NCBI GenBank assembly: GCA_024679065.1
Contig: JAGIQG010000040.1
Span: forward strand, 10,044,001-10,108,000
DNA: 64,000 nt
Source: Sphyrna mokarran
Taxonomy: Eukaryota
Direction of reading: 5' to 3'
Numbering within the stretch: the first letter of the stretch is position 1; every line of letters begins with the position of its first letter. Shown here in pieces: positions 10,231-61,149 of this stretch. The notes below the pieces were generated by a model. It did no database searches, was not told the DNA's origin, and saw only the letters and a program-made list of their open reading frames with translations. The translations under genes were made by a program, and so were the position numbers.

Positions 10231-11132
10231 TCAGGATGTATTGAGTTGACGAATTTCAGTAAGGGGGTATTTCAGTAGATCGCTTAGCTGCTGTCTGAAA
10301 TGAGTCTGTGTCACAACATAAATGGCAGTGTTTGTGCAACAACTTGTGAGTTGCAGCATGAAGCCCAATTCCATAACAAAAAGAGGTAAACTTACTGACA
10401 GAGAGCCCAAGCCATACATCCGCATCCATATTGAATAAACCATTAATGTCGACCATAAGACAATGAAATTGCCTGAGATAAGAAACAGTAAAATGATGGA
10501 CTTCCTTCGACTTTCCATCTCTGGGTCACTAGGATTCTTCCCACTGCTGTGAACCCGGAGTCTCCTGCGGGCTCTGCTGCTCACTAAAATGTGTCTGACG
10601 GTGAGAGCATTGAGCAGCAGAATCAGGATGAATGGGACACATGGGGTTATAATGTTGTGGAGGAACTCAATTATTGTCCAGACCAGAGATTCCACAACAT
10701 CCCATGTGAAACCACAAAACCAGGGGTTGTTCACCAGCTGATACCTTTTTAATAACATAAAATACCAGAAAATGTTCTTTAGAAAGCTCAGCACCGTCAC
10801 TGTTCCCAGAACCGCAGCCGCTGATTTTTCAGTGCAATATTTACTTTTCAGTTTGGGGCAGCAAATGGCCACAAATCGATCAAAGGTGAAAGTGATGGTG
10901 AACCAGACAGAACAGTCAGTGGCTGCGTAAAGCAGGACAGCGTGGATGTTACACACGGGGACTGATAGCAGGAAATAAAACTTTCTCCAATAAACAATAG
11001 GAATGTGTCTCAATATCAGGTCGAGGATAACGACCAGCAGATCCCCCGCTGACATGGCCACCAGGTAACGAGTGACACATTTGGACAGACCACAGTTTCT
11101 GCTCATCAGTGTCACAATTGTGATTATGTTCA
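10231..11132 (-). CDS. GPCR-A exon 2 (TM1 end to C-terminus), GPR139/GPR142-like class A GPCR
   Basis: Open 902 nt with hydrophobic helices, the TM3 motif TFDRFVAIC, the TM3/ECL2 cysteines and TM7 TNTAIY. The acceptor CCTGACAG joins exon 1 in phase 1 (..GVP V NIITI..). Spliced product 372 aa. Confidence 0.9.
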
Positions 11133-12139
11133 CTGTCAGGAAGGAAATAAAGATTGTAATTAGACATGATTCAAGGGAAAAAGTTATGATTTAGAATGCA
11201 GATGGAACAGAATTTTTTAAAAAGTGCACAAACACAGATACGCTTAAATCTCTTTTATGATCCGGCACATCTTTTGGAGTGTGAGAGGAAAGTGGAACAT
11301 TTGGAAGAAAACCCATGCAGACACGGGAAGAAGGTCCAAATTTGACATAGACAATTACCCGAGACTGGAATTGAATCCAGATCCCTGATGCTGTGAGTCA
11401 GCAGTGCTTACCACTGTGCCAGCATGCTGCTCCATGACAGGGGCAAAATGATATACATTTTGGAAAGAGTTTTCCATAAATCCTCAAAATTGACCTTCAT
11501 TCAACAGCAGGTGAATAGTCTCTCTACTTTGTGAGGGATTTGAAGAGTGAGAAGGGGGTGAGGAGAACCCTGACGGATAATTCAGAGTGGAACCCTGTTG
11601 TTAGTAATCTGTCATCTTTCAGACAGCTTACTGACATCCGTGCAGCAGAACTGGTACCAAACAGTGTTGGTTTCTCCCTTTCCTCTGGACATTACCCGCA
11701 ATTGGCAGGGAAAGATTTTAATCAACTGCTTAAAATCTCTATTATGTTTACAAAGGATTGTATCCTGGAGAGGAGACCTCAGCATTGTGGCCACCATTCT
11801 CACAACACAGGAAGAAATAGTAATCCCACACTCGAATGGCACAGAACACAAATGCCAGGGTTTGTTTTCAAATGGTTAGGGTTCATTGTATAGCTACCAT
11901 CCATAGTGCCCAGTGTATTTGCTGCTGCCCCACTATCTCTTACTGGACAAGTGAAGCTCACTGAGTCTTCTCCCAGTAGGAAACTTGCTGACCTATACAC
12001 CAGGTAAAAAAAAAAACACATCAAACCAAATCGGCTATCAAACAAAAATCAAGCAACCTGTCTTAATGACTCATATGTCCAATATTATATTATGCAGCAA
12101 AAGATTAGTTATGGCATGAATCAGTTCCAGCCTTCTGGA

Positions 12140-12545
12140 TTGCCTGGATCCATTACAGTTCACCTATCTCCGCAACAGGTTACTGATGCTATCACTGTGG
12201 GCCTGCAGTCAACATCGTAACACTGACTCCTGCTTATCGACAACAACTCAGCCTTTAACATCATTATTCCAGTGAAACTCATGTACAAAGTCTCTGGCCT
12301 GGGGCTAGGCTCCTACCTTTGTAATCTGATCCTGACAGATAGCAATAAATAAGAACAGTCAAAACACCTCCTTCACAATAATCCTTATAAGTGGATTATA
12401 CACCCTTATACACCAATGACTGCATGGCCAAATTCCCCTCCAACTTAATATCCAAGTTTGCTGATGACACCACTGCAGTGGGTCAAATCTCAAACACCAG
12501 GGACAGGGAAGAGACGGAGAATCTGGGAAACTGGTGGGATCACAG
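12140..12545 (+). mobile_element. Decayed non-LTR retrotransposon RT fragment (Rex1/Babar-like)
   Basis: Remnants of LDPLQF.Y, SAFN.IIP, and KFADDTT. Confidence 0.6.
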
Positions 12546-13609
12546 TAACTGAGAAATGACTGGGAAGTGATGTGTCTGGGTTGGTTGGTTGGCAGGGATC
12601 AGGTCGTGGGAGAGGCGGGTTTGATGGAATGTTAGAATGGAATCAAAACAACAATCAACACAGTTTCATTAGATCTGTTATAGTGACTAATTGGAATAAG
12701 TTGTAAGCGATCTAACCAATGAGAAAATGATGTGGTGTCAGTTGACCAACTGACTCAGTATACGTAAGAAGCTGCTGGGGTTTGTGAGAGCCTGTACAGG
12801 TCCAGGGTGAGGTCTCAAGTCTTGGACTCATGAAGTTTCTTCATTAAAGCTTGCTTTACAAGTTTGAAAGTTTGTAAAGTTTGCTTTACAAGTTAGAGTA
12901 AGTTGTGTTTCATTTTATTGCCAAGAACTGAAGAATCCCTCTTTCTGGATGCACATGAATATGTGGGGTGGGAGGCGGGGTTGAGGTTGGGGCGTGTGGG
13001 GCTGTCTCATATGAGGCACCGTCTGCACCTTTAAAATAATTTCCAAAATTACAAGAGGTTATTTCCCCCCCCCACTCCTATATTTTCAGCGTACCTATGA
13101 TCTGATGTAAATGATTGAAATTTGTTTGCCAGATGGTAGCAGGCACAGCACAATTTTCCAGTGGACTAGGCCTTCTGGACAATTGTCATGTGAACCCTCA
13201 ATTATTAGGGGCACAACAGCTATGATATTACCCTCTCCCACGTGAACCCCCATCCCAACCCATGCTCCAATCCATTATTTAAAACTCTGTCTATCTCCTC
13301 AAATTTACCAAGTCCCAGCATCCATCACACAATGAGGTAATTCATTCAACAGATTCACCACCCATTGAGAGAAGTGATTTCTCCCCATGTCTGCCTTAAA
13401 TCTAATTGTTTCAGATGATCGGGCCCTGCTTCTGGTTGTACTCCTGGCTCAAGCACTGGTGGATCTGCCTTGAAGGCAGTTGTGTTTTTTCTTACAATGA
13501 CCTATCAACAATCCTGGGCTCAGACTGGCTTGAGGTTGGCAACAACAATAACTTCAAATGGGTCCCTTTTAGCTGTGTGTTTTATTTAAACTCATGGGCT
13601 GGCGCAATG

Positions 13610-14437
13610 GAGATGCTGGCATTGGACTGGGGTAAGCGCAGTAAAAAGTCTCACAACACCAGGTTAAAGTCCAACAGGTTTGTTTGGCAGCAGCAAGCTT
13701 TTGGAACGCTGCCCTTTCATCGGGTAAGTGGAATTTCTGTTCACAAACAGGGCATATAAAGACACAAACACAATTTACAAAGTAATGGTTGCAACGCGAG
13801 TTTTCAGAGATAACCAAGTCTTAAAGGTACATACAATGTGATTGGAGAGAGGGCCAAGCACAGATTAAAGAGGTGTGTATGTCTCCAGCCGGAACAGTTA
13901 GTGTAATTTTGCAAACTCGGGATTGCTGATTGCCAGGAGTGTTCTCTTCCAGTTGGGGAGTACTTCAGCAGTCATGGACATTCAGCCTGAGATCTTCAGG
14001 TAAGCATTCTCCAGGGCGACCTTCACGACACACGACAGTGCAGAATCACTGAACAGAGACTGATAGCCAAGTTCTACACACCACAGGACGGCAAAAACAG
14101 TGATCTTGTGTTGATGTCACAATATCCGTAACCCCCACGATTTGCCTGGGCTTGCACAATCTCACTAACTGCCCAGAGAGGAGACAATACATGCCTCTTT
14201 AATCTATGCTTTACCCTCTATCCACTCATATTGTTTGTACCTTTAAGACTTGTTTACCTGTAAAGACTCACATTTCAAGGATTATTTTGTTAATTGAGTT
14301 TGTGTCTTTATGTGCGCTGTTTGTAAACACAACTCCTCACTCGTCTAAAGAAGGAATAACATTACGGAAGCTCTTGCTGCCAAATAAACCTGTTGGATTT
14401 TAACCTGATGCTGTGAGAATTCTTACTGTGCTGACCG
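13610..14437. mobile_element. Penelope-like element with inverted terminal arms, in the GPCR-A intron
   Basis: Arms ~13630-13920 and ~14145-14437 are inverted. The middle encodes a GIY-YIG C-terminal remnant (SLPVGEYFSSHGHS..EQRLIAKF) homologous to 54020-54210. Confidence 0.8.
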
Positions 14438-14824
14438 CAATACAAAACCTGCAGTGCCGGTTACCAGGCATCCCCTATGCTTTTGGCTTCTGGAATAACT
14501 TGCAACTTAGAGTTTCTGAGCATTCTGCAATTTAAGCATCTGAGCGTCAAACTGAAACAGATCTTTTAAAAAAAACGGTCAGACACATATTTCCCCCTCC
14601 AACAAGTTTTCACAATTCTTTTACATCTTTCTAAACATCTTCTACATCTTTATAAACTCAAATTCGCAACACAGGCAACATTGGCATAGTGATCAGCGCT
14701 TTGTAGATGTGACAACTCGACAAGGATGCAGCCAAAGCAACAGTCACAAACATGATAGAGAAGATGGCAAGAGTGGCAGAGTTAAACACAAGCTTCATCA
14801 TTAATAATCAGTGAATACACTTAC

Positions 14825-15041
14825 CGGGAACGCCAATAACAGCCAGGATTGGATAGTAAAAATATCGGATCAGTTTCAGCACATATTCGACACGCTTAGC
14901 TGTAGACGGCCAATCCTGAGAAAGTAAATAAATTATCGAGTATAAACTCCTCTCAATTGTTGTAACATTCAGATCTGTGTCCCTCAGATGTTGATCCATT
15001 GTGGGAACATTCAGATCTACCTTTCCTCTATTCAGATCCAT
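14825..15041 (-). CDS. GPCR-A exon 1 (repeat-containing N-terminus and TM1 start)
   Basis: MDLNRGKVDLNVPTMDQHLRDTDLNVTTIERS...YYPILAVIGVP, then the G|GTAAGT donor at 14824. Which in-frame ATG is used is uncertain. Confidence 0.85.
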
Positions 15042-16494
15042 TGCCAAAACTTGCAATTTCTTTCTCCCAATGTTGATCACACGACTCCCTCTTTCTGAAG
15101 CCGCTTATCACCGTGAAACTCCCGCTGACACCGTGCATAACACTGGGAGGACTCCTTTATGAAACATGGATGGGAATGCTCCACAGACACGATTAATACT
15201 GGTTGAATTAATTTCTACATTAATTACAGTCACCGAACAAACAGGTTTAATGTTTTCCATCCAAAATATTTCATACAAATGCATCACAAAAAATTCTGCG
15301 TCTGTTTGAGCGTTGCTGACTGTAGGGATTTTGGAAATATCGGAAGGGCTGACCAGTATCTTTCAATACTGCTGTGAGCATGGGATTGTGGCAAAAAAAA
15401 ATGTGCGAAAGTTCCTCCAACTTGTCCATAAAGGGAGAACGTTTTACACCTGGAAATGTAGAGCTGTCAGCATCCTATCAGTGAAAAGATTGGGGAAAGT
15501 CTGAACCCAAAATCGGATCTAAGACTGAGCAAGGAATCATAAAGGATAGAGGGAACTGGATGAGTTCCAAATGGAAAAAAAAAAGTGAAGAAAAAGAAAA
15601 GGGAGACACATCCCCCTCTTTTACCAACCTCTCGATTGGGGACAGATCCATCCCTGTCTCAACATCCCAAATCCAACAAGACAAAGACAAGAATGCTGCC
15701 AGAAGAAGGGAAAGGAAGAGTCCAAAGCAAAACAAAGGATGGAATCCCACTACTCACTGAATGAACAGCCTCACAGTGGGAAGTTAACCCCCTCTCCAAC
15801 TGCCACAGGGAAAGGAAGTTCTCCTAATCCCCTAGAGCCCAACATAAGCCGACCCTGATATACAATCCTCTCCTCTCAGCCTGCCCCTTCCAACACTACA
15901 TGGACGTGAACACAACCCTCCATCCTTAAAAGGACTCCCCAATCCCCCTTCCTATTCATCATCATATTGCTGAAAAACAGTGTCTCAACAGCCCTTAATT
16001 CCTTAACTGTTTTTTTTAACTATTCTTGCCTTAAAATATTCAATGAGGTAGTCTCAACTGCTTCATTGGGCAGAGAATTCCACAGATTCGCAATCCTTTC
16101 TGTGAAGAAGTCCCTCCTGAACTCAGTTCTGAATTTACTTCCCCTTATTTTGAGGCCACCAGTGTTATCAACTTTCCTAATTCTATCAGCCCCTTCTCGC
16201 ACCCACTATGTTCACCTGCCAGTGATAATAGCTTCCCTCACCAATCAGCCTTTTCCCCAAACCCCCCTCCTCCCAAAAGCCATATCCCACCTCTGTTGCC
16301 ACCTTTAGTGACCTGCTCGCCAGTACATCCATTTTCCTCTGTATGTTGATGTTCCTAATGGTTCTGGCATTTACAGTATAATACTGAGATCTCTTAGCTA
16401 ATCTCAGTGGGTGTGGCATCATTTCGAGATCTGGCTGTTGCTCTATCAGCATAACTTATTCAGTGTATAGTGAGCGCCAAAATGAGCAAGTAAG

Positions 16495-16581
16495 TGACCC
16501 ATCCACTCATCCATCCACCCGCCCATCCACTCATCCATCCACCCACCCATCCACTCATCTATCCATCATCCATCCATCCAT
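16495..16581. repeat. (CCAT/CCAC)n microsatellite
   Basis: Directly visible tetranucleotide repeat. Confidence 0.85.
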
Positions 16582-16838
16582 TTTTACCAATTTTTTTATC
16601 GCAGTCAGGTTTATAACAGTTCGATAATAGCATTGCTCTTTGGATGTGGCGAATTACATGAAATTTAATGAAGTTGAAGATGGTGTGCTCCTTTTTTCAG
16701 GAGGAAACAATACACACGATGGAAATATGAATTGCTGTGGGCGATTGACGGGAATGTTCATTAGAATTGACATTACTCCCTCCTGACCAAATTCGCACAA
16801 ATATTGAGCTACTACTTGCACCTGTTTGCTGTGTGTTC

Positions 16839-16910
16839 GGTTCTGTGGTGTACTGGTGAGAAATCTGGACTTTGAATCCAATGATCCCAGTTCAAATCTT
16901 TGTGGAACCT
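16839..16910 (+). pseudogene. tRNA-Gln (TTG) pseudogene
   Basis: GGTTCTGTGGTGTACTGGTGAGAAATCTGGACTTTGAATCCAATGATCCCAGTTCAAATCTTTGTGGAACCT aligns without gaps to vertebrate tRNA-Gln, but the D, anticodon and T stems carry mismatches. Confidence 0.8.
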
Positions 16911-17279
16911 TGCTTTAATTTGCAAACACAAATGATTGATATGCTGAAGGATGCTTCGTTTAAATTTCTCGGAAAGCACGAATTGTAAAAACAATTTGTC
17001 AGCCAATTCAACTGCTATTACAATGCACATTGCTGAATGTCTGACACCAGATGCCTGCAACGTGAACGTTTTTCATATTTTCGCTATTCCTTAACGCCTC
17101 TGTTAAAAAAGGAAGCAGTTGGTATCATGCAAGAAATTGACTGGTGTTTGGCAATTATTGACTGTGTGTGTGGGCGGGGGGGGGGGGGGGGGGGGGGGTG
17201 TGGGAGGGGGGGAGGAATATGTGGGTGTGTGTGTGTGGGGGGGTGTATATGGATGTGTGTGGACCCACTGTGGCCTACT

Positions 17280-18027
17280 GGACCATTGAGGAAACGGGCA
17301 TGGAGTCTACAGAAATAGGGCAAACAGATAAGGAAGTCATGGAACATTGGCAGATTAAGGAAGAGGTGGTACTGGCTGTCTTGAGACAATTCAAAGTGGA
17401 TAAATCCCCAGGTCCAGACAGGGTACTCCCATGGACTTGAGGGAGGCAAGTAGTGAACTTGCAGGGGCCGTGGCAGTCATATTTAAAATGTCAGTATGCA
17501 CGGGGGAAGTGCCAAATGATTACAGGGTGGCTCATGTTGTTCTATGTTTAAAAACGATTCTAAAAGAAATCCGGGAAATTATAGGCCAGTAAGTTTGACG
17601 TCAGTGGTGGACAAGTTATTGGAAGGTGTGATAAGGGACAGCATCTACAAATATTTGGATAGACAGGGACTCATTAGGGACAGTCAACATGGCTTTGTGC
17701 ATGGTAGGTCATGCTTGATCAATCTGTTAGAGTTGTTCAAGGAAATTACTGAGAAAGTGATTGAAGGGAAGACAGTGAATGTTGTCTAACTGGATTTTAG
17801 CAAAGCTTTTGATAAGTTCCCTCATGGGAGGTTCGTTAGGAAGGTTCAGTCGCTAGATATACATGGGGAGGTAGTAAATTGGATAATACACTGGCTCAAT
17901 GAAAGAAGCCAGAAAGTGGTTGTGGGAGATTGCTTCTCTGAGTGGAGACCTGTGACTATTGGTGTGCCACAGGGATCAGCGTTGGATCTGTTGTTGTTTG
18001 TCATCTATATCAATGATCTGGATGATC
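17280..18027 (+). mobile_element. CR1-type LINE ORF2 RT fragment
   Basis: [45 protein letters not shown]. Confidence 0.9.
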
Positions 18028-18234
18028 ATCCAATGCAATAGTTTAATCGTTTTATTTTTCCTCACAGCCTTTAATTCCATTTGCCCCAAGTGCAAAATCT
18101 AGCCGCCTTTTGAATGCATTCAAAGTTTTGGCATCAACTACTTCCTGTGGCAATTAACTCCACAGGTTTACCAATCTTTTGAAAGATTCCGATCAAGTGT
18201 TGCAAGATTATATTACATTGCTCTCAGACACAGG

Positions 18235-19055
18235 TTTCATGACCTCCCTATTTGTTTGCCCTGCCACTTTCCTTAGTAAATACGGATGCATAAAAACATT
18301 TAATATCTCCCTCATTTCTTTTGGTTCCATACAAAGCTAACCACTCTGATCGTCAAGAGCACCAATTTTATCCCTTACTATCCTTTTTGTTCTTACCTGT
18401 AGAATCTCTTAGGATTATTCTTCACCTTGACTTCCAAAAAACCTCATGATTTCTTTTTGCCCTCCTGATTTCTTTCTTAAGTAGTTTCTTGCATTTTTTA
18501 TACTCCTCAGGCATTTTATTTGTTCCTTGTTGCTTATACATGTCTCTCTTCTTCTTTATCCGATTTTCAATATCCTCAAGAACCAACGTTCATTTTTTTC
18601 TTATTCACTTCGCCTTGAATCCTGACAGGGACATATAAACTCTGCACTCTCAAAAGTTCTCCTTTGAAGGCCTCCCATTACCGATCACATCCTTGCCAGA
18701 GAACAGACTGTCCCAATCTACACTTTTTAGATCCTTTTTCATTTCTTCAAATTTAGCCTTTTTCGAGTTTAGAACCTCAACCCGAGGACCAGATCTACCT
18801 TTAACCATGATCAAATTGAAACTAATGGTGTTAAATCACTGGAACCAAATTGTTCCCCTACACACACTTATGTCACTTGTCCCAACTCATTTCCTAATAG
18901 GAGGTCTAATAATGCATCCTGTCCAGCTGTTATTTCTATATATTGATTTAGAATTCTTTTCCTGAACTCATTTTTTAAACTCTAACCTATCTAGACTTTT
19001 AGTAGTATGGGAGTCCCAATTTCTATGTGGAAAATTAAAATCCCCTGCAATGTAA
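18235..19055 (-). mobile_element. CR1-type LINE ORF2 fragment (endonuclease end and linker)
   Basis: Minus-strand remnants GDFNF, LGSSD.N.ISF, LNSKKA.FEE, RDSTGK.IKRIV; homologous to 30090-30800. It appears inserted into the 42-bp array. Confidence 0.7.
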
Positions 19056-19066
19056 TCGTTTATTTT

Positions 19067-20065
19067 TCTCTCAGATTCTGATCCATTATTGGAACACTGC
19101 AGTCTATTGTTCTCAGACTCTGATCCAGTACATGAACGTTACATTCAATTAATCACAGATTCTCATCAATTTTGGGACATTGCAGTGTGGTGCTCTCAGA
19201 TTCAGATTGAGTATTGGAATATTACAGGATATTGTTCTCAGATCTACAAAAAGAAATCCAGTATTGGAACATTACAGTCAATTGTTTGCTGATACTGATT
19301 CAGTCTATTGTTCTCAGATTCTGTTCAAGTATTGGCTCATTGCATTCCAAAGTTCTCAGATACTGATCGAGTATTGGAACAATGCCGTCTATTGTTCTCA
19401 GTTTCTGATCCATTATTGAATTACTGCAGTCTATTATTCTCAGATTCTGAACCAGTATCGAAACATTTCAGCCTATTATTCTCCGATGCTAATTCTTCTT
19501 TGAAGACAGCGGTCTACGCTTCTCAGATGCTGAATACATTATTGAAATATTGTGGTGTATTGTTCTCAGAATCTCATGCATTATTGGAATATTGCCGTAT
19601 ATTGGTCTCAGACTCCGATGCTGTATTTGATCATTACAGTATATTGTTCCCAGATTCAGATCCATTATCGCAACATTACAGTCTATTGTTCTCAGATTCG
19701 GGTCCATTATAGGAACTTTGTAGTCTATTGCTCTCTGTCCTGATCCACTATTGGAACATTGCAATATATTGTTTGCAGATTCTCATTCAGTATTGAAGCA
19801 TTGCAGTCTCTTGTTCTCAGATTTTGATCCAATATTTGAATAGTACATTTTATTGTCCTCAGATTCTGATCCATTAGTTGAAAGTTACTGTCCATTATTC
19901 TCAGATTCTGATCATGTGTTGGAATATTACACTCCATTGTTCTCAGATACTGATCCAGTATTGGAAGATTGCAGTTTTTTTTTGTTCTCTGATTCTGATC
20001 CATTATTTGAACATTGCAGTCTATTGTTCTCAGATTCCAATTAAGTATTGGAACATTGCAGTTCC
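19067..20065 (-). repeat. Degenerate 42-bp (2 x 21) tandem array, roughly 23 units, homologous to the GPCR N-terminal repeats
   Basis: Plus-strand consensus CTGATCCAGTATTGGAACATTGCAGTCTATTGTTCTCAGATT; the minus strand reads NLRTIDCNVPILDQ. Confidence 0.9.
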
Positions 20066-20300
20066 ATCTGAAGCCTCAGGTTGTACTGTACATAACACTG
20101 AGAGATAGTTCTATCTGAAACATCAGATTGTACTGTACGTAACACTGACAGATCTATCTAAAGCCTCAGATTTTACTGTATATAACATCCTAAACCTCTT
20201 GCAAAGACTGTACTGTACGTAACACTGAGAGATAGTTCTAACCAATGACTAGAGCTCAGACTATATTGTGTGTAATGCTAAGAGATTGATTTGTATGAAG
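20066..20300. repeat. Degenerate ~46-bp tandem array, about 5 units
   Basis: Recurrent CTGAAGCCTCAGATTGTACTGTACRTAACACTGAGAGATAGTTCTAT. Confidence 0.8.
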
Positions 20301-20419
20301 TTCCTCACTAAGGGTATTCAGTACATGAGCTATAGATAAGATCTGCTATAGCCTCGATTTAGCAGACTATGTCAACCCTAATTAATATTAACTTCATCTG
20401 AAACCCACAACCCTGATAA

Positions 20420-21195
20420 CCATAAGGCAGTAAGATACAGGAGCAGAATTAGGACATTAAGCCCATCGAGCTGGCTCCACATTCAAGCATGACTGAGAAG
20501 TTTCCCAAACCCATTCTCCCGTTTTCTCCCCGTAGCCTTTGATCCCTTTATCAGTCAAGAACCTATCTACCTTTTTCTTAAATACGTTCAGAGATTTGAC
20601 CTCTACATCTTGTGTAGCAATGAATTCCACAGACTTGCCACTCCCTGACTGAAGAAATTCCCCCTCATCACAATTCTAAAGTAAGTAAACTTCACAACAG
20701 CTGGTTAAAGTCCTACAGGTTCATTTGAAGTCACAAGCTTTTGGAACACAGCTTCTTCATCAGGTGAGTGGACAACTAGTGTTCTGAGACTTTTTACTGT
20801 GTCCACACCAGTCCCACGCCGGCATCTTCACATGTCAGTTCCAAAGGGTAAACCCTCTCCTCTGAGTCTCTGTTCTCATTCCTCATCTCTCCTGTTATTG
20901 GGAACATCTTCCTCAAGTGCACTCTACCCAGACCTTTCATTATTCTAAAAGTTTCAATGACTTTCTCCTCCTCATCCTTCCAAACTCCATCAAGTACAGA
21001 CACAGAGTCCTTAGACACTCCTCATGTGTCAAGTCTCTCATTCGCCGGATCATTCTTGTGAACATCCTCTGGATCCTGTCCAAGGCCAGCACACCCTTCC
21101 TCAATACGGGGCCGAATGTGGTCTGACCAGAGAATTATTAAATCTCAGCAGTACATCCCTGCTTTTATACTCTAGCCGTCTCAAAATGAACACTA
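20420..21195 (-). mobile_element. CR1-type LINE 3' fragment interrupted by a short Penelope terminal piece (~20683-20835)
   Basis: CR1 tail and coding remnants; the insert matches the Penelope end at 13610-13735. Confidence 0.7.
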
Positions 21196-21656
21196 GCAGA
21201 GGTTATATCGAATGAATATTGGAAATTGTACAGTCTGACCCGCCATTATTTTCAAATTTCCATACCTCCTTACTCTCAACACCCCATCTGAGCTTTAAGA
21301 ATTCTACTTTGGGTGTAAAAAAGTATTGGATTCAAAGGGGTTAAGTGAAGCTGTTTGTTTCGTGACTGTAATTGATTTGAGTCTCCATGGATCTGATTAA
21401 TGTACCTGGAGGGATTTCCCTCTTCTACTAATAAGGGATTCCGTTCAATGTGTTGTCCCATTGAGTTAACGAGAGCAACAGCTCCGACAGTAACAGAGAT
21501 CAACGGCTGCGGAGTGAGAGGGAGGGAGAGGAGAGATCAGAAACTGAAACAATGGATGGGAATCTTCTAACAATGGATAAGAATCTGGGAGAAATAGATT
21601 GGAATGTTCCAACGATGGATCAGAATTTGGGAACAATCAACTGAAACATTTGAACA

Positions 21657-21909
21657 ATGGATCAGAATCTGGGAACAATGAATTGGAATCTTCCAACAAT
21701 CGATCAGAATCTGGGAACAACGGAGTGGAATGTTCCAACAATGGATCAGAACTTGGAAAATGTTCCACCCAAGGACAGGAGTTTATTCATGTGGATTTCT
21801 TTCTATACGGCAGATGATTGGTTGATAACATCAGTTGATCGGATTGAATATCTACTGAAAGTGATTCAATGTTTTTACTATCCCCTCCTGGCGATTATTG
21901 GTATCCCGG
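21657..21909 (+). CDS. GPCR-B exon 1 (repeat-containing N-terminus and TM1 start)
   Basis: MDQNLGTMNWNLPTIDQNLGTTEWNVPTMDQNLE...YYPLLAIIGIP, then the G|GTAAGT donor at 21910 (phase 1). Confidence 0.85.
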
Positions 21910-22399
21910 GTAAGTCCCTGGCTAGAATTCTACTGGCCAACGGCCGTGGGGTTCGGAGCAGGCGAGGGACGGAGCATGGGAAGGTCTGTTGAACATGGGT
22001 GAAACTTTGCAGCTTCGGGAAGAGTAAAGCTGTATTATCCGGTCCCCTGTGTCCTGTTCCTAATTCTAGAAAGGCTGTTTAACTGTATTGATTTGTTTGT
22101 GATTTAATGTACTCAGTTCGTTGCTCTTGTTGTTTTTGTTGAATCTCTGTATCTAGTTGTTATTTTTTTTCAGCAACGGAAAATTGTCTCAGAACCTATG
22201 CGCCATGACGTCTTCTGTGTGTTGTGACCTTCCATAGACATCTGACCTCCAACACTATTCCCTCATGAGTAAAAGATTGAGGCAGAACTCTTTTTACCCT
22301 CTACGTATAACACCAGTTCACTGCTAATCATCCACCCAGTTACCAGGCCTCAGAATCCATTTTAATGGTCATATCTGCACAGCAAGATCTTACAGATGG

Positions 22400-25365
22400 A
22401 GAATATAGAACGTAGAACTGTACAGCACTGTACAGACCCTTCGGCCCTCAATGTTGTGCCGAGCTATGTCCAAACACTGATCAAGCTATGCCATGCCCTA
22501 ACATTCTGGCATATTCCCTGTGTCCATCTAATAATGTTTGGAAGTTCCTAAAGTGTCCAACTCCATTATCACAGCAGGCAGTGCATTCCACACCCCAAAC
22601 ACTCTCTGAGTAAAGATTCTGAGTAAAGAATCTACCTGGGACATATTGCCTATATCTCTCACCATGAACCTTATAGTTATGCCCTACGAATACCAGCTGC
22701 ATCCACCCGAGGAAAAAGTCGTTGCACATCCACGCTATCTACCCTCTCATCATCTTATAAACTTCTATTAAATCGCCTCTCATCCTTTCCTGCTCAAAAG
22801 AGAAAAGCACCAGCTCCCTCAACCTTCCCTCATAAGACCCAAGACATCATCATCACCATATCCATGGTAGAGAAATGATCGGAAAACAATCTGAGGACAG
22901 AATTAATCTCCACTTCGAGAGGTAAGTACTTATGAATATTAGTCAGCATGGCTTTGTCTGACAATGTGCTGGAATATATTGAGGAGGTGACTGTATGAGT
23001 AGATGAGGGAAGTTCAGTCATGTAGTCTATATGGACTTCAGAAAAGCTTTTAACAAATTCGGCACGGGAGACTGAACAAGGAAGTGATATCCGATTGGAA
23101 CCGGTGCAACTTGGTAAATAACATTCACAGTTGGCTGAGTGGCATGAAACAGAGGGTAATGGTCGAAGGTTGCTTTTCTGACCGCAAGCCTATGTCCAGT
23201 GGGGTTGCACAGGGATCGATGCTGGGTTCCTTGCTGTTTGTTGTGTACTGCGATGGTCTAGACTTGAATGTGTGAGGTATGATCAATAAGTTCACAGATG
23301 GTACAAAGATTGATTGAAGAGGAAAGCCTTAGATTACAAGAATCATAGAATCACAGTGCAGAAGGAGTGCAGTGCTAGCCACATGCAACCGTGCTGAGGA
23401 AATTGAAAAGCTCGGCAAATGTAACTTACATCTGAAAAATGTCAGGTGATGCATTTGGGACAACTATCAGGACAAGGAAACACAGTGTGTCCAGTCGAGT
23501 GTGGGGAACTGCAGGGGACTGGAATGAATTTGGGGTGCATTTATGCAGATTTCTAAAAGCAGTAAGACTGGTAGATGAGGTGGTTAAGACGACATGTAGG
23601 ATATTTCCCTTTAGCAGCGGCAGCATAGAATATACGACGGTGGAGAAGAGATTCACCAGGATGCGGCCTGAGCTGGAGAGTATCAGCTATGAGGAGAGAC
23701 TGGTTAGGTTGGGATCTTTTACCTTAGAGCAGAGACGGCTGCAGGGGGAGCGGGTGTAGTGTGTGGTGGTGAGGAGCACTTTCAAATGGGTGAGGGGAGA
23801 GGGAAGCTGAGTGATACGTACAAAATTTGTGGCACATAGAGAGGAAGAAAACTTTTCCCCTTTAGGAGAGGTTTGAAAAGCCAGAGGGGCATGGTAAAGG
23901 ACAGATTTCTGTGTGGATCTGAAGAAAAATGTTTCCATCCACAAAGTGATGAGATCTGCAGCTCAGGGCCTGAAGCAATGGTAGAAGCTGGAACAACCAC
24001 AAGAAGCATTTAGATCAGCAATTCAAACGCCAGAACAGACAAGGCTGTGAATCCAATGCTGGAAAATGGGTTTCGATTGCATAGGTCAGATCAGGCATAA
24101 TGGGCCAAAGGACCCCATTTTTGTGCTGTTAAAACTCGATGACTGTTAGACTATTCTCTGTAGTGGTCCATCACTTGCAGCTTTCACAGTGCTGACTGGG
24201 ACACCAATAACATAACAAACCTATGTGTTTGAGAATGCACAATTGCAGCCAGCAGTGAGCTTCCTGGTCTGAGAGAGGCATCTGTCAGCTATCTGCTGTT
24301 GCACTCGCTTCAACATAACAGCTGCCCCCAGGTAGTCTGGGGATCACAGCTCTTTGTGAGCAGCCCCTGACCGAATATTGCCACCACTTGCCACTTGGAC
24401 CTATCACCACCCCCCCTTCCCCCACATCAATTGCACGCAGAGAGCCGAGAGACCCTCTTCCTCCCAACTGCACATGCAGAGAGGCAGCGAGGTCCCCGCC
24501 TTATCCACTGTGCATGCAGAGCTGCAGAGGGACACCCATCCCTGCCTCACCTATCGTGTGCAGGTTGGCTGTAAGACTCCTCTCTTCATCAATCTCATGC
24601 AGACCAAAAGCGGGCCTGCACTCCCGACTTCAACACTTAACGGAAAGTTTCTGAGGAACGTAAAAGAACACAAAGTACTTGGGGTTCACATCCACAGATA
24701 TCTGAAGGTTGCCACTCAAGTGGACAGAACTATGAAGAAGCTTATAGTGTGTTAGCGTTTATTAACAGGGGTTTGAGTTTAAGGGCCGTGGGATTATGTT
24801 GCAGCTACACATAACCTTTGTGAGACCACATTTGGAATATTGTGTTCAGTTCTGGTCACCTCACTATTAGAAGAATTGTCTCATTGTAGAGGCTGGAGAG
24901 GATCTTTACCAGGATGCTGCCTGGTTTGGAGGGTATGTCTTATGAGGAAAGGTCGAGGGAGTTGGGGCTTTTCAATTTAGAGTGGAGGAGTATGAGAGGC
25001 AACTTAATAGAGGTTTATAAGGTGATGAGGGGTAGGTAGAGATAGTGGACGTGCAGAGAGTATTTCCTCAGATGGATGTAGCTGTTATTAGGGGACATAC
25101 TATAACATTCATAATGGGAGATATAGAAGGAATACCCAAGGTAGATTCTTCAATCAGAGAGTGGATGGGGTGTGGAATGCACTGCCTGTTGTGATAGTGG
25201 AGTCGGACACTTTAAGAACTTTCAAGCGGTTATTGGATAGGCACATGGAGCACACCAGAATGATAGGGAGTGGGATAGCTTGATCTTGGAACTGGACATA
25301 GCTTGGAACAACATCGAGGGCTGAAGGGCCTGTACTGTGCTGTACTCTTGTATGTTTGATGTTCT
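22400..25365. mobile_element. CR1-type LINE fragments in the GPCR-B intron (minus ~22400-22840; plus ~22870-24140 and ~24630-25365)
   Basis: ORF2 motifs (KQRVMVEG, GV.QGSMLG, RFTRM, FF.QRV..VWNALP) and CR1 tails. Confidence 0.75.
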
Positions 25366-26123
25366 AAATCCAGTTTCTCACATCTCCCCAATGTCCACAT
25401 TGAGCCTTGTAAATCATTCTCGATCACAGCCATCGCATGTACAACATTAACCTGCACAAATTCATTGTTAATGTCAGGGCAGTTGACTTGTGAAAGGCCG
25501 ATTTGATTTGGTTTGAATTGATTTGGTTTATTATTCCACAAAGAATAATTATGTGATCCAAGCCTGGAATCAAACTCAGGTCCCTGCGAGACAACAGTGC
25601 TAGCCATTCTACTACCATGCAGCTTCTTCTCTGCTGCCATCAGAAGTTTGAATTGACCCACATCACATTTAGATGATCTTTTATTACACCCTAGCTATGA
25701 TTGCAGCATTACACTCTGCACTCTTTCCTTCTCTATGTACAGAGTTACAGTGTTACAGAGTTCACTGCAGAGCCAGGGAGATAGTGCCTGTGGACCCGTT
25801 GGGGAGGTAGGTGGACTGTAGTGTATCCCGGCAATCTGGGCGGCCGGAATTGATTCATACCATGACTAACCTTTTGAGGCATTTCATAACATTGGATATA
25901 CAGTGAAAACCATTGTTACTTGGGTGTCACACAGCCAAAGCATAGTGCATCCTATGAGTCTGTTGGTACACGTCTTCACACTTTCCTGTCACACTTCGAA
26001 AGATGTGCTGTTCTTTTTTAAGTGATATGTATACTTTTTTTATTTTAACCCATTCTCAGTCTAAATGGTAATTCCTTCCCCTGAATCATGTCTAATTTTA
26101 TTCTGTATTTCCCTTCGTGACAG

Positions 26124-27025
26124 TGAATATAATCACGATTGTGACACTGATGAGCAGAAACTGTGGTCTATCCAAATGTGTCACTCGTTATCTGGTGGCC
26201 ATGTCAGTGGGGGATCTGCTGGTCGTTATCCTCGACCTGATATTGAGACACATTCCCATTGTCTACAAGGAACAATTTTCTTTCGTGCCCTCGGTCCCCG
26301 TGTGTAACATCCACGCTGTCCTGCTTTATGCAGCCACTGACTGTTCTGTCTGGTTCACCGTCACTTTCACCTTTGATCGATTTGTGGCCATTTGCTGCCC
26401 CAAACTGAAAAGTAAATATTGCACTGAAAAATCAGCGGCTATGGTTCTGGGAACAGTGACGGTGCTGAGCTGTTTAAAGAATGTTCTGTGGTATTTTATG
26501 TTTTTAAATGGATATCGGCTGGTGAACGACCCCTGGTTTTGTGATTTCACAATTGGTGTTGTGTTTTCTCCAATCTGGTTAACAATCGAGATCCTCCATC
26601 ACATTCTAACCCCGTGTGTCCCATTCGTCCTGATTCTGGTGCTCAATGCTTTCACTGTCAGACACATTTTAGTGAGCAGCAGAGCCCGCAGGAGACTCCG
26701 AGCACACAGCAGTGGGGAGAATGCCAGAGACCCAGAGATGGAGAGTCGTAGGAAATCCATCATTTTACTGTTTGTTATCTCAGCCAATTTCATCCTCTTA
26801 TGGTCGATGTTAATGGTGTATTCTATATGGAAACAAATGGTTTTTTTGGGCTATCCTTCGGTAGCATTTGATCTTTTTGTAATGGAATTGGGGTTCATGC
26901 TTCAACTCACAAGTTGCTGCACAAACACTGCCGTTTATGCTGTCACACAGACTCAATTCAGACAGCAGCTAAGCAATCTACTGAAATATCCCCTTACTGC
27001 CATTCTTCACCTCATTTCCCCCTGA
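26124..27025 (+). CDS. GPCR-B exon 2, GPR139/GPR142-like class A GPCR
   Basis: Open 902 nt, colinear with GPCR-A exon 2; acceptor CGTGACAG; TFDRFVAIC and TNTAVY motifs. Spliced product 384 aa from ATG 21657. Confidence 0.9.
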
Positions 27026-48254: not shown

Positions 48255-48300
48255 ATGAGGTCGGCGATTTCTCTCAGTTTGTTCTTGACTTTCTTATCTG
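48255..48300 (+). CDS. IGHV: IgM VH leader exon
   Basis: MRSAISLSLFLTFLS, then G|GTGAGT donor (phase 1). Confidence 0.92.
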
Positions 48301-48429
48301 GTGAGTATTATTTTATTGTCCAAATCTCTCACTGTCACTATCTCCCTGTTCGTCTATCGCTGAAATGTTTCAGAAACAGCAATCATTTCACCAGGATTAA
48401 TCCTCGGGCTTTTTGATATATTTTTATAG

Positions 48430-48734
48430 TTGTCCAGTCGGAGATTGTGTTGACTCAGCCAGAGGCAGAGACCGTGCATCCAGGAGAATCCCTGAAACTG
48501 ACCTGTAAAACCAGCGGCTTCGATTTTAGCAATACTTGGATGACCTGGATCCGACAGGTTCCTGGACAGGGACTGGAATGGCTGGTTGACTACCATAGTT
48601 CATCCAGCAACAACTACGCTCCAGCAATTAAGGATCGATTTACTGCGTACAAAGATACTTCAAACAATATCTTGTCTTTGGACATGACGAGCCTGAAGAC
48701 CGAAGACACCGCCATCTATTACTGTGCAAAAGAC
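48430..48734 (+). CDS. IGHV: IgM VH exon, unrearranged and open
   Basis: [44 protein letters not shown] with canonical Cys/Trp/Cys; acceptor TTTATAG. Confidence 0.97.
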
Positions 48735-48773
48735 CACAGCGAGAGGAACAAGGGCTGCACCCGAACAACGACA
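48735..48773 (+). other. VH 3' RSS, 23-bp spacer
   Basis: Heptamer CACAGCG, 23 nt, nonamer ACAACGACA (degenerate). Confidence 0.85.
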
Positions 48774-49119
48774 GGTCGAGAGGGAATTCAGCAACTTCCA
48801 ACGTAACCTTAAGGTAAATATCTGTTTTAAATGTAATATTAACGACAGTGATCAGAACCAAACCATAATCTCTTTTTAAAAGTAACAAAGAAATCAGTTA
48901 ATAGTACACTTTAACAAACTTACCGATATTAATGGGGTGAGCTTTTCACCGACTTTATATTTATTGTAGTTTCAGCAAGTTCAGCGCTGGATATATTAAC
49001 TGTTTTAATATTTCTGGTAGATTGTGTTATATGAATTGTTGCCTACATTATAAATTAAAACAGAACTAATGTCCCATTTGAAATGAATATTGAGCGGTAG
49101 TACTGAACGGAGTGAGTGC

Positions 49120-49199
49120 AGTTTTTGTCCGAGCCTATGTCACTGTGATACTATAGTGGGTCACAATGCTTAGCAAAGCGACATCCTCATACAAAAACC
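49120..49199 (+). other. IGHD: D1 segment (ATACTATAGTGGGT, 49148-49161) with 12-RSS and 22-RSS
   Basis: AGTTTTTGT-12-CACTGTG / CACAATG-22-ACAAAAACC. Confidence 0.95.
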
Positions 49200-49508
49200 T
49201 CAGAGAACGATTTTGCTTAAATTTATGATCAATGCCACTGCCGAATGCCAAACTATCGAGAGTTCAACAAAATAATAGGTAGAAGCAGCATTGTGTTTTT
49301 TAAGATATAAAATACTTCAACTTTATTGTTATTGATTTACATGCTGAATGTGCAAGTGAGTGTAAAAATTTCTAACCCCCTTTATCAATACAATGACCAT
49401 TAAAAAGAAATGAAATACCTCACTGACCTACTCTTAATGAGGTGGAAACAGGCTTTTGAAATAGCACTGAAATTAATTATCTGCATTTTACAGTTAACAG
49501 TCTGCCTC

Positions 49509-49576
49509 AGTATTTGTCATGCTGTGTCTCACTGTGATAACTGGATGGCACTGCAGTTACTGTCAATACAAAAACT
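49509..49576 (+). other. IGHD: D2 segment (ATAACTGGATGG, 49537-49548) with two 12-RSS
   Basis: AGTATTTGT-12-CACTGTG / CACTGCA-12-ACAAAAACT. Confidence 0.92.
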
Positions 49577-49900
49577 CCTCAGCACTGACTGACTGAAGCT
49601 GGATCAGTGTCACTTTTAAATTCCAACTATAATTACTGTATAGTATTATTTATGTCCAGCACTGACCATATGACAAGAATGAAAATGGAAACTCTTGATA
49701 ATTACTCAATTAGCAGTTGGTGTTTTCAACAACATATTCGTGTGTTATTCTGTGAAATATAAAACATTAGTGTCATTTATGAATGGTAAATGGTACCCAG
49801 AAATAGAACAATAATTCAATGAACATTAATTGACTTTGTTTTTCCTCTGGTTTGTGGATATTTAAAAGAATGATGGTTTTGTGTCTATTTTTTCAGGGAC

Positions 49901-49939
49901 AGTTATTATATGACACAGCCCAGGGAATTTAACACTGTG
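49901..49939 (+). other. JH 5' RSS, 23-bp spacer
   Basis: Nonamer AGTTATTAT (degenerate), 23 nt, heptamer CACTGTG. Confidence 0.8.
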
Positions 49940-49987
49940 ACTACTTCGACTACTGGGGACAAGGCATCATGATTACAGTGACTACAG
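49940..49987 (+). CDS. IGHJ: JH segment
   Basis: YFDYWGQGIMITVTT, then G|GTAAG donor. Confidence 0.96.
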
Positions 49988-50285
49988 GTAAGAACCATGC
50001 ACTTATTGAGTAACTGGTTTATATGCGACTTTGCTTTATATATTTGTCTATACGAATAATCCATTTGGTAACATAAATATGGGTTTGGTGGATTTTCGAT
50101 TGAGAATTTTTCAATATTTGTTGTGATTCTGCTGCAAAGGGGTTTTCGAATTCCGCTGTTTCTTGACAATAGGTGCCGCTTAGGGATTCAATCTTCAGAT
50201 ATTGTGTTTTTGTGTTTATCTGTTGGGGTTATTGTGTGGCTAGGTTACTTTAAAAGTCCAACGTCTGTTAAACAATTCAGCTTTT

Positions 50286-51480
50286 CTGCAATGTTTAATC
50301 TCGGTGACATCTAGTGGCTGCGCGTTGTATTATCTATACACAAGTGTTCGAAAACTAACCCAATATTTTTTAAAAAGTTCTAAAATTTCTAAATGTATCC
50401 AGTGAAAATGTTCCACTCACACAATGCTGATCTGCCATCCAATATTTTCTGGTTATTGTAAACATTAATTATTTTGGTGATGGTCGAATTGGCTGGAATT
50501 TATATTAAGCATTTCTGTCAATGTTATTTTTGATTCTATTGGAAGTGTTTGTAGAATTGTGCTGCTTCTGCATGAAATGGTGTTCAGTATTTCAGTGATG
50601 CGTTATTTTTCTGGTGAGGAGATTATGTGTATGGGTGACTTTAAATACGTAAACTTGTACATTAATTTGGTGTTTCTGCATTGTTTGAACTCAGTGAGAC
50701 TGAGCCGTTACACGTTTTGTGATTGAACACGAACATTCTGTGGTTTGCAATTGCTTGACGCATAACTGCAGACAGAAATAAAGTAGGCTTTACTGTATGT
50801 GTATTTTTAAAATTTTTAGTGATAACGGCTTACGCCACTCGTTCAGAACATAGTTTGTCACTTCATTCACGATTTGGGGTACCTGCAATGTTTAATCTCG
50901 GTGGCATTTGATGGCTGGAACTCTTACCATCCAAATGTTTAAATATGTTTGAAATAAGACCCAGTAGAAATAAAATGTGATAAAGTTTCAGTTTGTTTAG
51001 TATATTCCACCTCCTCGCAGTATCATTATGATTATTCCAGACTTTTGTTTAGTTTAATAATTGGTTAAAAGCTGGTTTGCTAGATTCAATATTGAGATTT
51101 TTTTGCAATGTTACATTTGATTCTGTTGAATGGATAATTGAGCTGCTTTTCCGTGAAACAGATTCGTTCTCTCATTGATGTGTTTTGTTGTGCTTCTGCT
51201 GAGGAGATTATGTGGTGCAGTCACTGGGAATGTTTAAAATTTGTGAAATGGTTTGGCTTTGTAGCATTATTTCTGTGCTGTTTAAATAGTGTTTTGACGT
51301 TGACCTTGAAAGCTTAGATGTTTTCTGGTTGAACACAATCTTTGAATTTGAATATCCTTGTAGGGTGAAAACAAGCAGGTTTAAAAAAAAACCTAAAAGA
51401 TATCACAGTATTTTTATAAATTTTAACTAACACTCGCAAATTCAAGTAAATCATGACTTAAAGGCTCATTCGGACATTAA
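50286..51480. repeat. Old ~590-bp tandem duplication in the J-C intron (partial extra unit ~52140-52370)
   Basis: CTGCAATGTTTAATCTCGGTG at 50286 and 50883; GAGGAGATTATGTG at 50616 and 51201. Confidence 0.7.
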
Positions 51481-51656
51481 GTCTTTGCTGCAAACACAAA
51501 CTTCTCATGAACAAGTTTTATAGTAAAAATATTATAAATCAAACAATTATTAATCAGTAATATAACTCCAGATTGACCTAAGATTATTTTATGTCAATAA
51601 TGTATCAAAAATTCCGTTTAATAATTTTGTTGTGCTTTTTGCACTATTAACATGAG

Positions 51657-51833
51657 AAGAACAAAGAACAAAGAACAAAACAGCATGGGAAACAAGCCCT
51701 TCAGCCCAATGAGCCAGCGCCGCCACCTCGATGTTCCCATTTCTGCACGCGATCCCTGTCCATGTTTATAGACCTATGGATTAAAAACCAAATTTGAGAC
51801 AATTCAGGGAGAATTTGTTTTGCCAATTAGCCA
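51657..51833 (-). mobile_element. Short 3' piece of the SINE-carrying LINE (second subfamily)
   Basis: Near identical to 55468-55633. Confidence 0.8.
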
Positions 51834-52934
51834 ATTGAAAAAGTTGAAAAAAAATTTTCAAGACTAAAAATATTTTGTGGCAATTCCAGAAGCTATTTCA
51901 ATGATAACATGCTGTTTTCACAGCCGCACTCAGTTGAATAAGATACTTCACATTAATCGTTACATCCCACATTAAGTTTGCATCACTAGAATATGAGTTA
52001 TGCGGAATAAGACATTATTTTTTCGCAATTTTGTATCCGATTATGACATTCTTTATATGCAGTTACAACAAGATTATTCCTTCCAAGCTTTTTTCTTTTA
52101 AATTAGATATTTCTTTTAATTATAATTAATTACTAATTTCATCTCAAAATTTGTGAAATGGTTTGGTGCTTTTCAATTGTTTTTGCATTGTTTCAACTCA
52201 GTGATACTGAGCGTTTCTGGCTAAATGGAAATAAAAGTGCGTTTGAATATTCTTTAGAGTTAAAGCAAAAAGCATTTCAGGGCAAAATAAAATAAATATA
52301 TGTTGGGGCATTTTATTCATGTTAACTGATGCTGACATATTAAAATAAATCACGAATTGCAATTTGCTGTATCTCTGTTAGGGACATTACACTAACTACC
52401 CTGAATTTCTTATATTTTATCTTCATTTTCAGAAAAGAAATAGATTTTTGCCCAGTTTGGGGGATTTGAGACAGAGCGAAAAAGTTAAAAGGCAAAGTCA
52501 GTTTTAAAATTAACATCAGGTTAATTTAATTTTGTTATTGTTGTTGAAATTTGACCTTTGATCAATTAAAATGAAACAGTTTGTCTAAGTTGGCAGAGTG
52601 AACAGAGTTTTTGACAGATGGAATTCGCTGACACTCAAGCAAAATTGCTGGCATGATTGTTTTTGAATTGTAGTAAATTGTCAACAAAAACTGGCTCGAG
52701 ATTGACAAATAAATGCTTAAAATTCAAAAAATATTAACTTATATAAAAATATCATAATATTATAAAAGTAATATTAGCTCTGCACTTAATAATAATATCA
52801 TGTCTCCATTTACTGCTGAACTCACGATAGAATTAGCGAAAGAATAAATGACAGAATATTGGGTCTATCTGAACTCTGTATTAAATTCTTATTAAATATA
52901 ATCATGAAGAAAAGCTCTGGGCTTATATTCTGTG

Positions 52935-54485
52935 ATGTAGGCGTTGGACTGGGATAAACTCAGTGAAGTTTGACAACATCAATTTTAAATCCAACCGATT
53001 TATTTGATAGTAAATTTGCGAGCTTTGGCCTTTGTGGCCTTCGTCAGGCGAATGAGGTGGTCTGGTCTCCAAAAGCACACATATCAGCACAGACAGTTTA
53101 CAGATTGCTGATTAATGCGAATCCTTACCCTTAACCTGCTATTCAAGCCTTAAAGTGGCTAACAGCAGAGGTTAGAGAGATGTGTATTGTCTCCAGAAAG
53201 CACAGTAAGTGAGGTTTTTTTGCTAACCCAGGCAAGTCACGGGGGTTACAGATAGTGTGACATGAAGCCAAGATCCCTGTTAAGACCGTCCTCATGTGTG
53301 CGGAACTTGGCTATCAGTCTCTGCTCAGCGACTCTGTGCTGTCATGTGTCGTGAAGGCCATCTTGAAGAACATTTACCCGAAGGTCGGAGGCCGAATGCC
53401 CGTGACTACTGAAGTGTTCGCCCACAGGAAGGGAACTGTTTTGCCTGGTGATTGTTGAGCGATGTTCATTCATCCGCTGTCGTAGTGTCTGCATGGTCTC
53501 CCCAATGTACCATGCTTCAGGACATTATTTCTTGCAACGTATTAGGTAGACAACGTTGGCCGAGTTGCAAGAGTATGTACCGTGTATCTGGTGAATGGTA
53601 TTCTCACATTTGACGATGTCGTCCATGTCAATGATCCGGCACGTCTTGCAGAGGTTGCTGTGGCAGGGTTGTGTGGTATTGTGGTCCCTGTTCTCCTGAA
53701 GGTTGGGTAGTTTGCTGCGAACAATGATTTGTTTCAGGTTGTGTGATTGTCTGAAAGCAAGAAGTAGGGGGAAGGGTGGGGATGGCCCTAGCGAGATGTT
53801 CATCGTCATCAATGATATGTTGAAGACTCCGGAGAAGATGTCGTAGCTTCTCCGCTCCGGGGAAGTACTGGACAACAAAGGGTACTCTGTCCACTGTGTC
53901 CCGTTGTCTACCTAATACGTTGCAAGAAATAATGTCCCGAAGCATGGTACATTGGGGAGACCATGCAGACACTACGACAGCGGATGAATGAACATCACTC
54001 AACAATCACCAGGCAAAACAGTTCCCTTCCTGTTGGTGAACACTTCAGCAGTCACGGGCATTCGGCCTCCGACCTTCGGGTAATTGTTCTTCAAGGTGGC
54101 CTTCACGACACATGACAGCGCAGATTCTGCTGAGCAGAGACTGACAGCCAAGTTCCACACACATGAGGACGGTCTTAACAGGGATCTTGGCTTCATGTCA
54201 CATTATCTGTAACTCCCATGACTTGCCTGGGTGAGCAAAAAACCTCACTTACTGTGCTGTCTGGAGACAATACACATCTCTCTAACCTCTGCTGTTAGCC
54301 ACTTTAAGACTTGAATAGCAGGTTAGGTGTAAGGATTCACATTCTAATCAGCAATCTGTAAACTGTCTGTGCTGATATGTGTGCTTTTGGAGACCAGAAC
54401 ACCTCATTCGCCTGACAAAGGCCGAAAGCCCGCAGATTTACTATCAAATAAATTGGTTGGATTTAAAATTGGTGTTGTCAAACTT
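52935..54485. mobile_element. Penelope-like element with ~590-bp inverted arms (52966-53555 and 53902-54485)
   Basis: GIY-YIG endonuclease remnant NVVYLIRC..WYIGETMQTLRQRMNEH in both arms; RT-thumb/linker coding in the spacer on the minus strand. Confidence 0.92.
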
Positions 54486-57587: not shown

Positions 57588-57632
<45 letters not shown>

Positions 57633-59095: not shown

Positions 59096-59228
59096 CTCAC
59101 AACCCATATCCCTTCATCCCTTTAACACCAAGAGCTATATCTAATATAGAAACCTATTTGTTACAATATGTTTGACTAAATAAACACAGAAAAGAGTCTA
59201 ACTTGTTCAATTGGCTATTCTTTCCCAG

Positions 59229-61127: not shown

Positions 61128-61149
61128 GTGAGCTGAGAGATTGAAACAA

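Follow-up and report, generated by a model that had tools for sequence, protein, structure and literature searches.

The window analysed here, 64,000 nucleotides of the shark Sphyrna mokarran (assembly GCA_024679065.1, contig JAGIQG010000040.1, positions 10,044,001 to 10,108,000 of the forward strand), lies on a contig of 12.3 Mb (C994) in a genome of 2.77 Gb. It contains two divergently oriented genes, hereafter A and B, both of them predicted to be intact and to belong to a family, present in sharks and rays, that numbers more than 1,000 copies here; its members are class A (rhodopsin-like) G-protein-coupled receptors (GPCRs), and the family is separate from GPR139 and GPR142. The initial annotation had placed the receptors in open reading frames (ORFs) at 10231-11106 (minus strand) and 26150-27025 (plus strand), and both positions, along with the divergent arrangement, were confirmed; these ORFs do not, however, represent the entire genes, since each starts at an internal methionine of a second exon. 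An upstream first exon and a phase-1 GT-AG intron were predicted in each gene, and with that predicted splicing the products comprise 372 (A) and 384 (B) amino acids with no internal stops, in which form A and B read as intact two-exon class A GPCR genes whose start codons are 6.6 kb apart (Table 1). The joint between the two exons of gene B was found in none of the 15 matches listed, 20 more being unlisted, from four sets of presumed-RNA contigs, two contigs of which enter the intron, so that this search was uninformative.

Both ORFs matched Pfam 7tm_1, the sole Pfam family above the cut-off, and the AlphaFold model of an 83%-identical relative (P0003; mean predicted local distance difference test score 68) found its Foldseek matches among class A peptide and amine receptors. 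N1.50, D2.50, C3.25, D3.49, R3.50 and Y7.53 were kept in all 116 intact copies compared, W6.48 in 114 and N7.49 in 115 of them, the prolines P6.50 and P7.50 being mostly replaced. With seven predicted transmembrane (TM) helices, a helix 8 and the activation motifs present, both proteins belong to class A.

The annotation had also proposed an expanded family in sharks, which proposal the genome bore out with many copies rather than a few. Of 2,510 candidates from a protein search, 134 were scored, and their identities all fell within 73-100%; an exact 20-base motif of TM3 had 604 genome matches (control, 0), a degenerate TM3 motif 1,208 (control, 11) and an independent TM7 motif 1,379 (control, 38). 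Motif recall was 68 and 70 out of 70 close copies, and only 3/8 divergent copies for each, because of which the counts are too low, while duplicates on short contigs (L012 = L013) raise them by an unquantified amount. Exon 2 was intact in 38 and broken in 22 of 60 motif-picked loci, a non-random draw from five contigs, from which proportion some 800 intact copies might be extrapolated for the genome. A first exon with a GT donor and a start codon was located no more than about 9 kb away in 28/42 genes, 23 of these finds being over the score cut and 5 below it and added later. Pairwise identity among the 116 intact copies runs from 36% upward, with a median of 60%, and many copies cluster close to contig ends (C335, 78-80 of 85 Mb; C738, 57-58.5 of 58.6 Mb; C749, 0.3-1 Mb). 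This is a large, clustered birth-and-death family of the kind seen in chemosensory repertoires.

As for the arrangement of the pair, the closest sampled copy to gene A is L127, at 2.3% divergence, so that A and B are not mutual nearest copies, and family genes lie in mixed orientations along C994; for both reasons the head-to-head layout is not special. A recent inverted duplication as the origin of that layout was rejected. Elsewhere on the same contig, two copies some 250 kb apart (L149 at 10.03 Mb and L150 at 9.78 Mb of G000:C994) are identical in exon 1 and in the 330 bp upstream, which identity may reflect a segmental duplication of very recent date or else a duplicate introduced in assembly.

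A and B share 87% nucleotide identity and differ at 58/291 residues, but their divergence is not uniform along the protein. With the topological regions fixed before the site models, from the AlphaFold model of P0003 and the class A motifs, the extracellular loops (ECLs) differ at 23/48 sites and the intracellular loops plus helix 8 at 6/57 (Fisher p=2.3e-5), the inner TM halves at 10/101 and the outer ones at 13/84. The conserved inside and variable outside described by the annotation hold, therefore, for the loops but not for the intracellular C-tail, where 6/10 residues differ.

To the suggestion that the loops diversify under selection we applied site models by region. From 106 intact exon-2 sequences we retained the 73 with at least 68% identity to B and, after dropping 6 near-identical ones, a final set of 67 paralogs, which we analysed with our own codon model, whose M0 fit agreed with that of IQ-TREE. 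The ratio of nonsynonymous to synonymous substitution rates (dN/dS) was 0.42 in the inner loops, 0.31 and 0.39 in the TM halves, and 0.82, 1.12 and 0.92 in ECL1-3, respectively. Over codons 1-290 the likelihood-ratio test (LRT) statistic was 335 for M2a over M1a, 333 for M8 over M7 and 264 for M8 over M8a, with M8 assigning 9% of the sites a dN/dS of 2.7; and of the 23 sites with a naive empirical Bayes posterior of at least 0.95, 19 fall in the ECLs and none among the 57 inner-loop positions, the others being 3 at the outer ends of TM helices and 1 where TM1 ends on the inner side. The signal persisted when each segment was given its own tree (LRT 81, 161 and 36), and 19 disjoint close pairs gave a pN/pS of 1.13 outside, which value was not tested against 1, versus 0.37-0.58 elsewhere. 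The synonymous rate is higher in the loops (1.35 vs 0.8-1.1). Gene conversion homogenising the inner face was rejected in that pS is not lower inside, though gene conversion may still have had some influence. The outer loops, then, are under diversifying selection, as the annotation had supposed.

In contrast, the identification of the pair as GPR139/GPR142 copies did not survive. Within the protein collection, 1,819 relatives were found at E 1e-10 or better, and among the 120 of these that were listed, 118 were named shark proteins from eight genera and 2 were unnamed, the shark proteins nearly all carrying the label of probable GPR139. Searching with a profile yielded 132 clusters with an E value no higher than 1e-30; 30 out of 150 representatives were looked up, of which 21 came from sharks, skates or rays and none from chimaeras, the other nine being weaker matches from a salamander, coelacanth, teleosts and amphioxus or unnamed or name-cut records. 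The solved structure that best matched the family profile was human GPR139 (E 9e-13), which a single-sequence search of the PDB did not recover. A GPR139 motif had 20 matches in the genome: one exact, one with a single mismatch, and 18 from a family cluster on C224. True shark GPR139 (L091; E 2e-159 to the human chain) and GPR142 (L092; 92% to a named shark GPR142) are single genes on other contigs, and the family is only 21-25% identical to these receptors.

In two quick trees, one of 68 rows and one of 24, with Shimodaira-Hasegawa-like approximate likelihood-ratio support only, the family formed one clade (support 96 and 98), sister to a salamander orphan receptor (99) and with shark-plus-ray subclades inside it, GPR139 and GPR142 being separate from it (100). 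The approximately unbiased test rejected the grouping of the family with GPR139 (p 3e-41) as well as with GPR139 and GPR142 together (p 0.009), which rejections, along with the true orthologs elsewhere, rule out orthology to either. The family groups, instead, with three orphan lineages at supports of 94-97; one is that of the salamander protein, and the other two, coelacanth/teleost groups, have single shark orthologs, L099 (G000:C805) and L100 (G000:C1104), which genes keep Arg6x51. A phase-1 intron within TM1, before N1.50, has both donor and acceptor in A and B, and in L091 and L092 the codon that carries the acceptor is the same; because that position is common to all, kinship with the GPR139-related receptors is real, but old. 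In bony vertebrates, three orphan subtypes have been described beside GPR139/142, two of them named GPR210A and GPR210B, in a report whose available text has no occurrence of sharks or cartilaginous fishes and no expansion (PMC6504862). The three orphan lineages around the family may correspond to these subtypes; L099 and L100 would accordingly be probable genes of the GPR210 type, which that source does not report for cartilaginous fishes.

The ligand pocket has changed little within the subfamily and much from that of GPR139. GPR139 docks tryptophan or phenylalanine through Arg6x51 and acidic residues of TM2-3, as far as the accessible part of the source describes (PMC8807744), and on an alignment of 25% identity, which limits the mapping of all pocket positions, Arg6x51 is found in 1/116 family copies, Glu3x32 in 0/116, Asn7x38 in 3/116 and Pro6x50 in 1/116, with A and B carrying leucine at both 6x51 and 3x32. 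Positions 2x57, 2x61, 3x37, 5x43 and 6x48 are identical in 67/67 paralogs nearest the pair and differ between subfamilies. The family has, moreover, a TM3-ECL2 cysteine pair, which shark GPR139 lacks.

The remaining features of the window are collected in Table 1. The N-terminus in the subfamily of the pair is coded by a 21/42-bp repeat, most units of which open with a methionine, and the number of units differs among copies, giving N-termini of 22 to more than 90 residues; in gene B the first part of the repeat also contains an upstream ORF of 30 codons, from 21552, which ends in an in-frame stop. The degenerate 42-bp array between the genes is likely a decayed remnant of an exon 1.

Table 1. 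Features of the window, in window coordinates; exons follow the predicted splicing.
Feature	Position	Strand	Remarks
Gene A, exon 1	14825..15041	-	N-terminus and first half of TM1; phase-1 GT donor at end
Gene A, exon 2	10231..11132	-	Remaining TM1 through stop; one terminal stop after splicing
Gene B, exon 1	21657..21909	+	N-terminus of 7/14-residue repeats and first half of TM1; phase-1 GT donor
Gene B, exon 2	26124..27025	+	Remaining TM1 through stop; one terminal stop after splicing
21/42-bp tandem repeat	21535..21762	+	Codes for N-terminal repeats of gene B
Degenerate 42-bp array	19069..20062	-	About 1 kb; kin to the N-terminal repeat; contains stops, lacks the TM1 part
47-bp tandem array	20060-20250		Adjoins the 42-bp array
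Shared upstream block, gene A	15219..15247	-	TAAT homeodomain-type site
Shared upstream block, gene B	21348..21376	+	Same block as in gene A
IgM-type heavy-chain cluster	48255..64000	+	Leader, VH, two D with RSS, JH, CH1-CH3, start of CH4; neighbouring feature, separate from the receptors

The antibody cluster of the window, which we take to be of the immunoglobulin M (IgM) class from its layout and sequence, lies 21 kb from gene B and comprises a heavy-chain variable (VH) frame at 48417-48803, diversity (D) segments with recombination signal sequences (RSS) near 49147 and 49536, a joining (JH) segment near 49933, and constant (CH) exons near 59180 (CH1), 59755 (CH2) and 60764 (CH3) and from 63691 (CH4), the last of which seems to depart from the usual sequence just short of the window end and may be broken. 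No octamer was present within 47701-48440. C994 bears 24 close VH segments at 3.5-10.4 Mb with matching constant exons, and further Ig-type constant-exon arrays occur on G000:C1548 (81.0-81.9 Mb), C772 (7.9-9.0 Mb) and C738 (57.9 Mb). At least nine IgM VH segments lie in the first 421 kb of G000:C1082, a contig that probably represents another portion of the IgM region or one left unplaced.

We consider it very probable that the family constitutes a working recognition repertoire. Each receptor would bind its own set of ligands through the variable loops, and a shared G protein would signal from the conserved inner face; the ligands of the pair's subfamily, furthermore, would likely be peptides or proteins, bulky and alike in their core, and not free tryptophan or phenylalanine, because the deep pocket is nearly invariant while the loops and the rim vary. 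That this repertoire reads a wide range of external ligands, with sensory neurons of the nose as the most likely site, strikes us as an evenly balanced proposition, the olfactory site being a lean and not a result. Its fullest form—in which a GPR139-related orphan would have given rise to the main chemoreceptor family of sharks and rays, with about 1,000 receptors, each olfactory neuron expressing one of them and hypervariable loops reading peptides or proteins—falls a little short of that balance, and we advance it tentatively. If this fullest form were correct, a family of some 1,000 olfactory receptors would outnumber the known odorant receptor (OR), TAAR, ORA and V2R genes of sharks and rays about twentyfold, would add one more class of vertebrate olfactory receptors that arose independently, and would share a chromosome, and perhaps regulation, with the IgM clusters. 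For the catshark, only 8 OR and 40 V2R or V2R-like genes are reported (PMC6368271).

The upstream regions bear on the olfactory reading in both directions. The blocks upstream of A and B, 86% alike over 29 bp, are likely the promoters of the two genes. Among the 27 upstream regions analysed, 23 contain homeodomain-type TAAT sites (background, 0.48 of windows; reached in 1/200 shuffles), and in several divergent subfamilies a looser O/E (Olf-1/EBF) word stands near -115, with a TATA-like box following some 20 bp later. In mouse OR promoters a set of O/E, homeodomain and TATA elements is enriched, according to the available text of PMC3247239, and the motifs found here would lend weak support to olfactory expression. 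Several observations weigh against the favoured reading as a whole: the 27 regions fall into just 8 similarity clusters; the strict O/E word is present in 3/27, which is not an enrichment (37/200 shuffles reach that count), and the looser one in 8/27, by a pattern picked after the sequences had been inspected; neither pattern occurs upstream of A or B, where the homeodomain site stands alone; the pooled dN/dS of the loops is 0.99, a mean of about 1 and not above it; the pocket was mapped at low identity; and family genes are interspersed among the IgM clusters on C994. In addition, EBF is also a main B-cell factor, so that such sites fit the nose or the B cell, and ORs vary around the pocket, unlike the loop selection over an invariant pocket observed here.

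If the repertoire were not olfactory, the strongest contender, though one that we hold unlikely, would be an immune repertoire on leukocytes or barrier epithelia, whose receptors would sense microbial or parasite peptides in the manner of formyl-peptide or MRGPR receptors and whose loops would be engaged in an arms race with pathogens. The selection on exposed loops would suit that role, as would EBF-like sites; and the neighbourhood is suggestive, in that, of the 69 receptor genes located, one or more lie in each of 14/23 intervals between consecutive VH segments of C994, which count is a lower bound, the IgM cluster of the window is close to gene B, and Ig-type constant exons stand near or within receptor clusters on C1548 and C738. 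Most copies, however, reside on contigs apart from IgM (C960, C446, C335, C749, C668 and C224), and mammalian OR genes also adjoin antigen-receptor and major histocompatibility complex loci, so that such a neighbourhood says little about tissue. The terms 'GPR139' and 'receptor 139' were, in addition, absent from the supplements of a single-cell study of shark immune cells (PMC11372145) and of one on nurse shark spleen (PMC10529500), which absence is weak evidence, as gene names may differ.

Rather improbable, in turn, is the sensing of diverse ligands elsewhere, as in chemosensory cells of gut or skin, solitary chemosensory cells, gametes or the reproductive tract. Loop selection would suit the recognition of gametes or peptides, and the related GPR142 and GPR139 have their roles in metabolic tissue and in the brain; more than 1,000 copies with about a third broken (22/60) are, nonetheless, more usual for families of the nose or the immune system. 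A part in glucose metabolism is ascribed to GPR142 in the accessible text of PMC8807744. Finally, that the copies merely result from segmental duplication at chromosome ends rich in repeats and on small chromosomes, with relaxed loops and gene conversion mimicking selection, is very improbable and largely refuted: although clusters near contig ends (C335, C738, C749), the identical copies L012/L013, the identical upstream regions of L149/L150, and the pooled loop dN/dS and raised synonymous rate of the loops would be in keeping with it, the relaxed-only model M8a was rejected (LRT 264), which result held on the segment trees, purifying selection is clear in the TM segments and the inner loops, sharks and rays have subclades in common, and many copies exist in many sharks.

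Returning to the family itself, we found no description of its expansion in the literature, subscription papers lying outside the search. It is unmentioned in the main text and supplements of PMC8455134, in the main texts of PMC11979771 and PMC7677710, and in the supplements of PMC11372145 and PMC10529500, as well as in the available text of 10.1101/2025.06.08.657570, whose table of tandem clusters could include it. The genes themselves are already in the databases, where an automatic label misnames them. Cartilaginous fishes have been called poor in GPCRs (PMC8455134), and a few dozen olfactory receptors have been ascribed to them (PMC6368271); more than 1,000 copies under one automatic label overturn the low GPCR count, whatever the tissue. 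If the family were olfactory, it would explain why sharks smell so well despite their short list of known receptors; were it immune, the antibody loci would have a germline-encoded recognition repertoire next to them.

GPCR repertoires specific to a lineage are familiar as a type of system, and what we describe is a new origin of one at the scale of the odorant receptors. The family resembles GPR139/GPR142 in its best profile match to a solved structure, in the same phase-1 intron just before N1.50 and in its database name, but differs in sequence identity, in the rejected grouping, in the lost docking residues and, from shark GPR139, in the cysteine pair. With respect to the GPR210A/B-type orphans, it nests among three groups that may be of this type, whereas the source describing them includes neither an expansion nor cartilaginous fishes (PMC6504862). 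The OR, TAAR, V1R/ORA, V2R and T2R families are comparable in size, tandem clusters, many pseudogenes, ligand-facing selection and, perhaps, partly similar upstream motifs, from all of which the shark family is set apart by its separate ancestry, its split coding exon and its match to Pfam 7tm_1 only. Formyl-peptide receptors and MRGPRs, lastly, likewise belong to class A, have expanded in particular lineages and vary in their outer loops, serving immune and sensory cells; the shark family is far larger, and the comparison is one of form, not of sequence.

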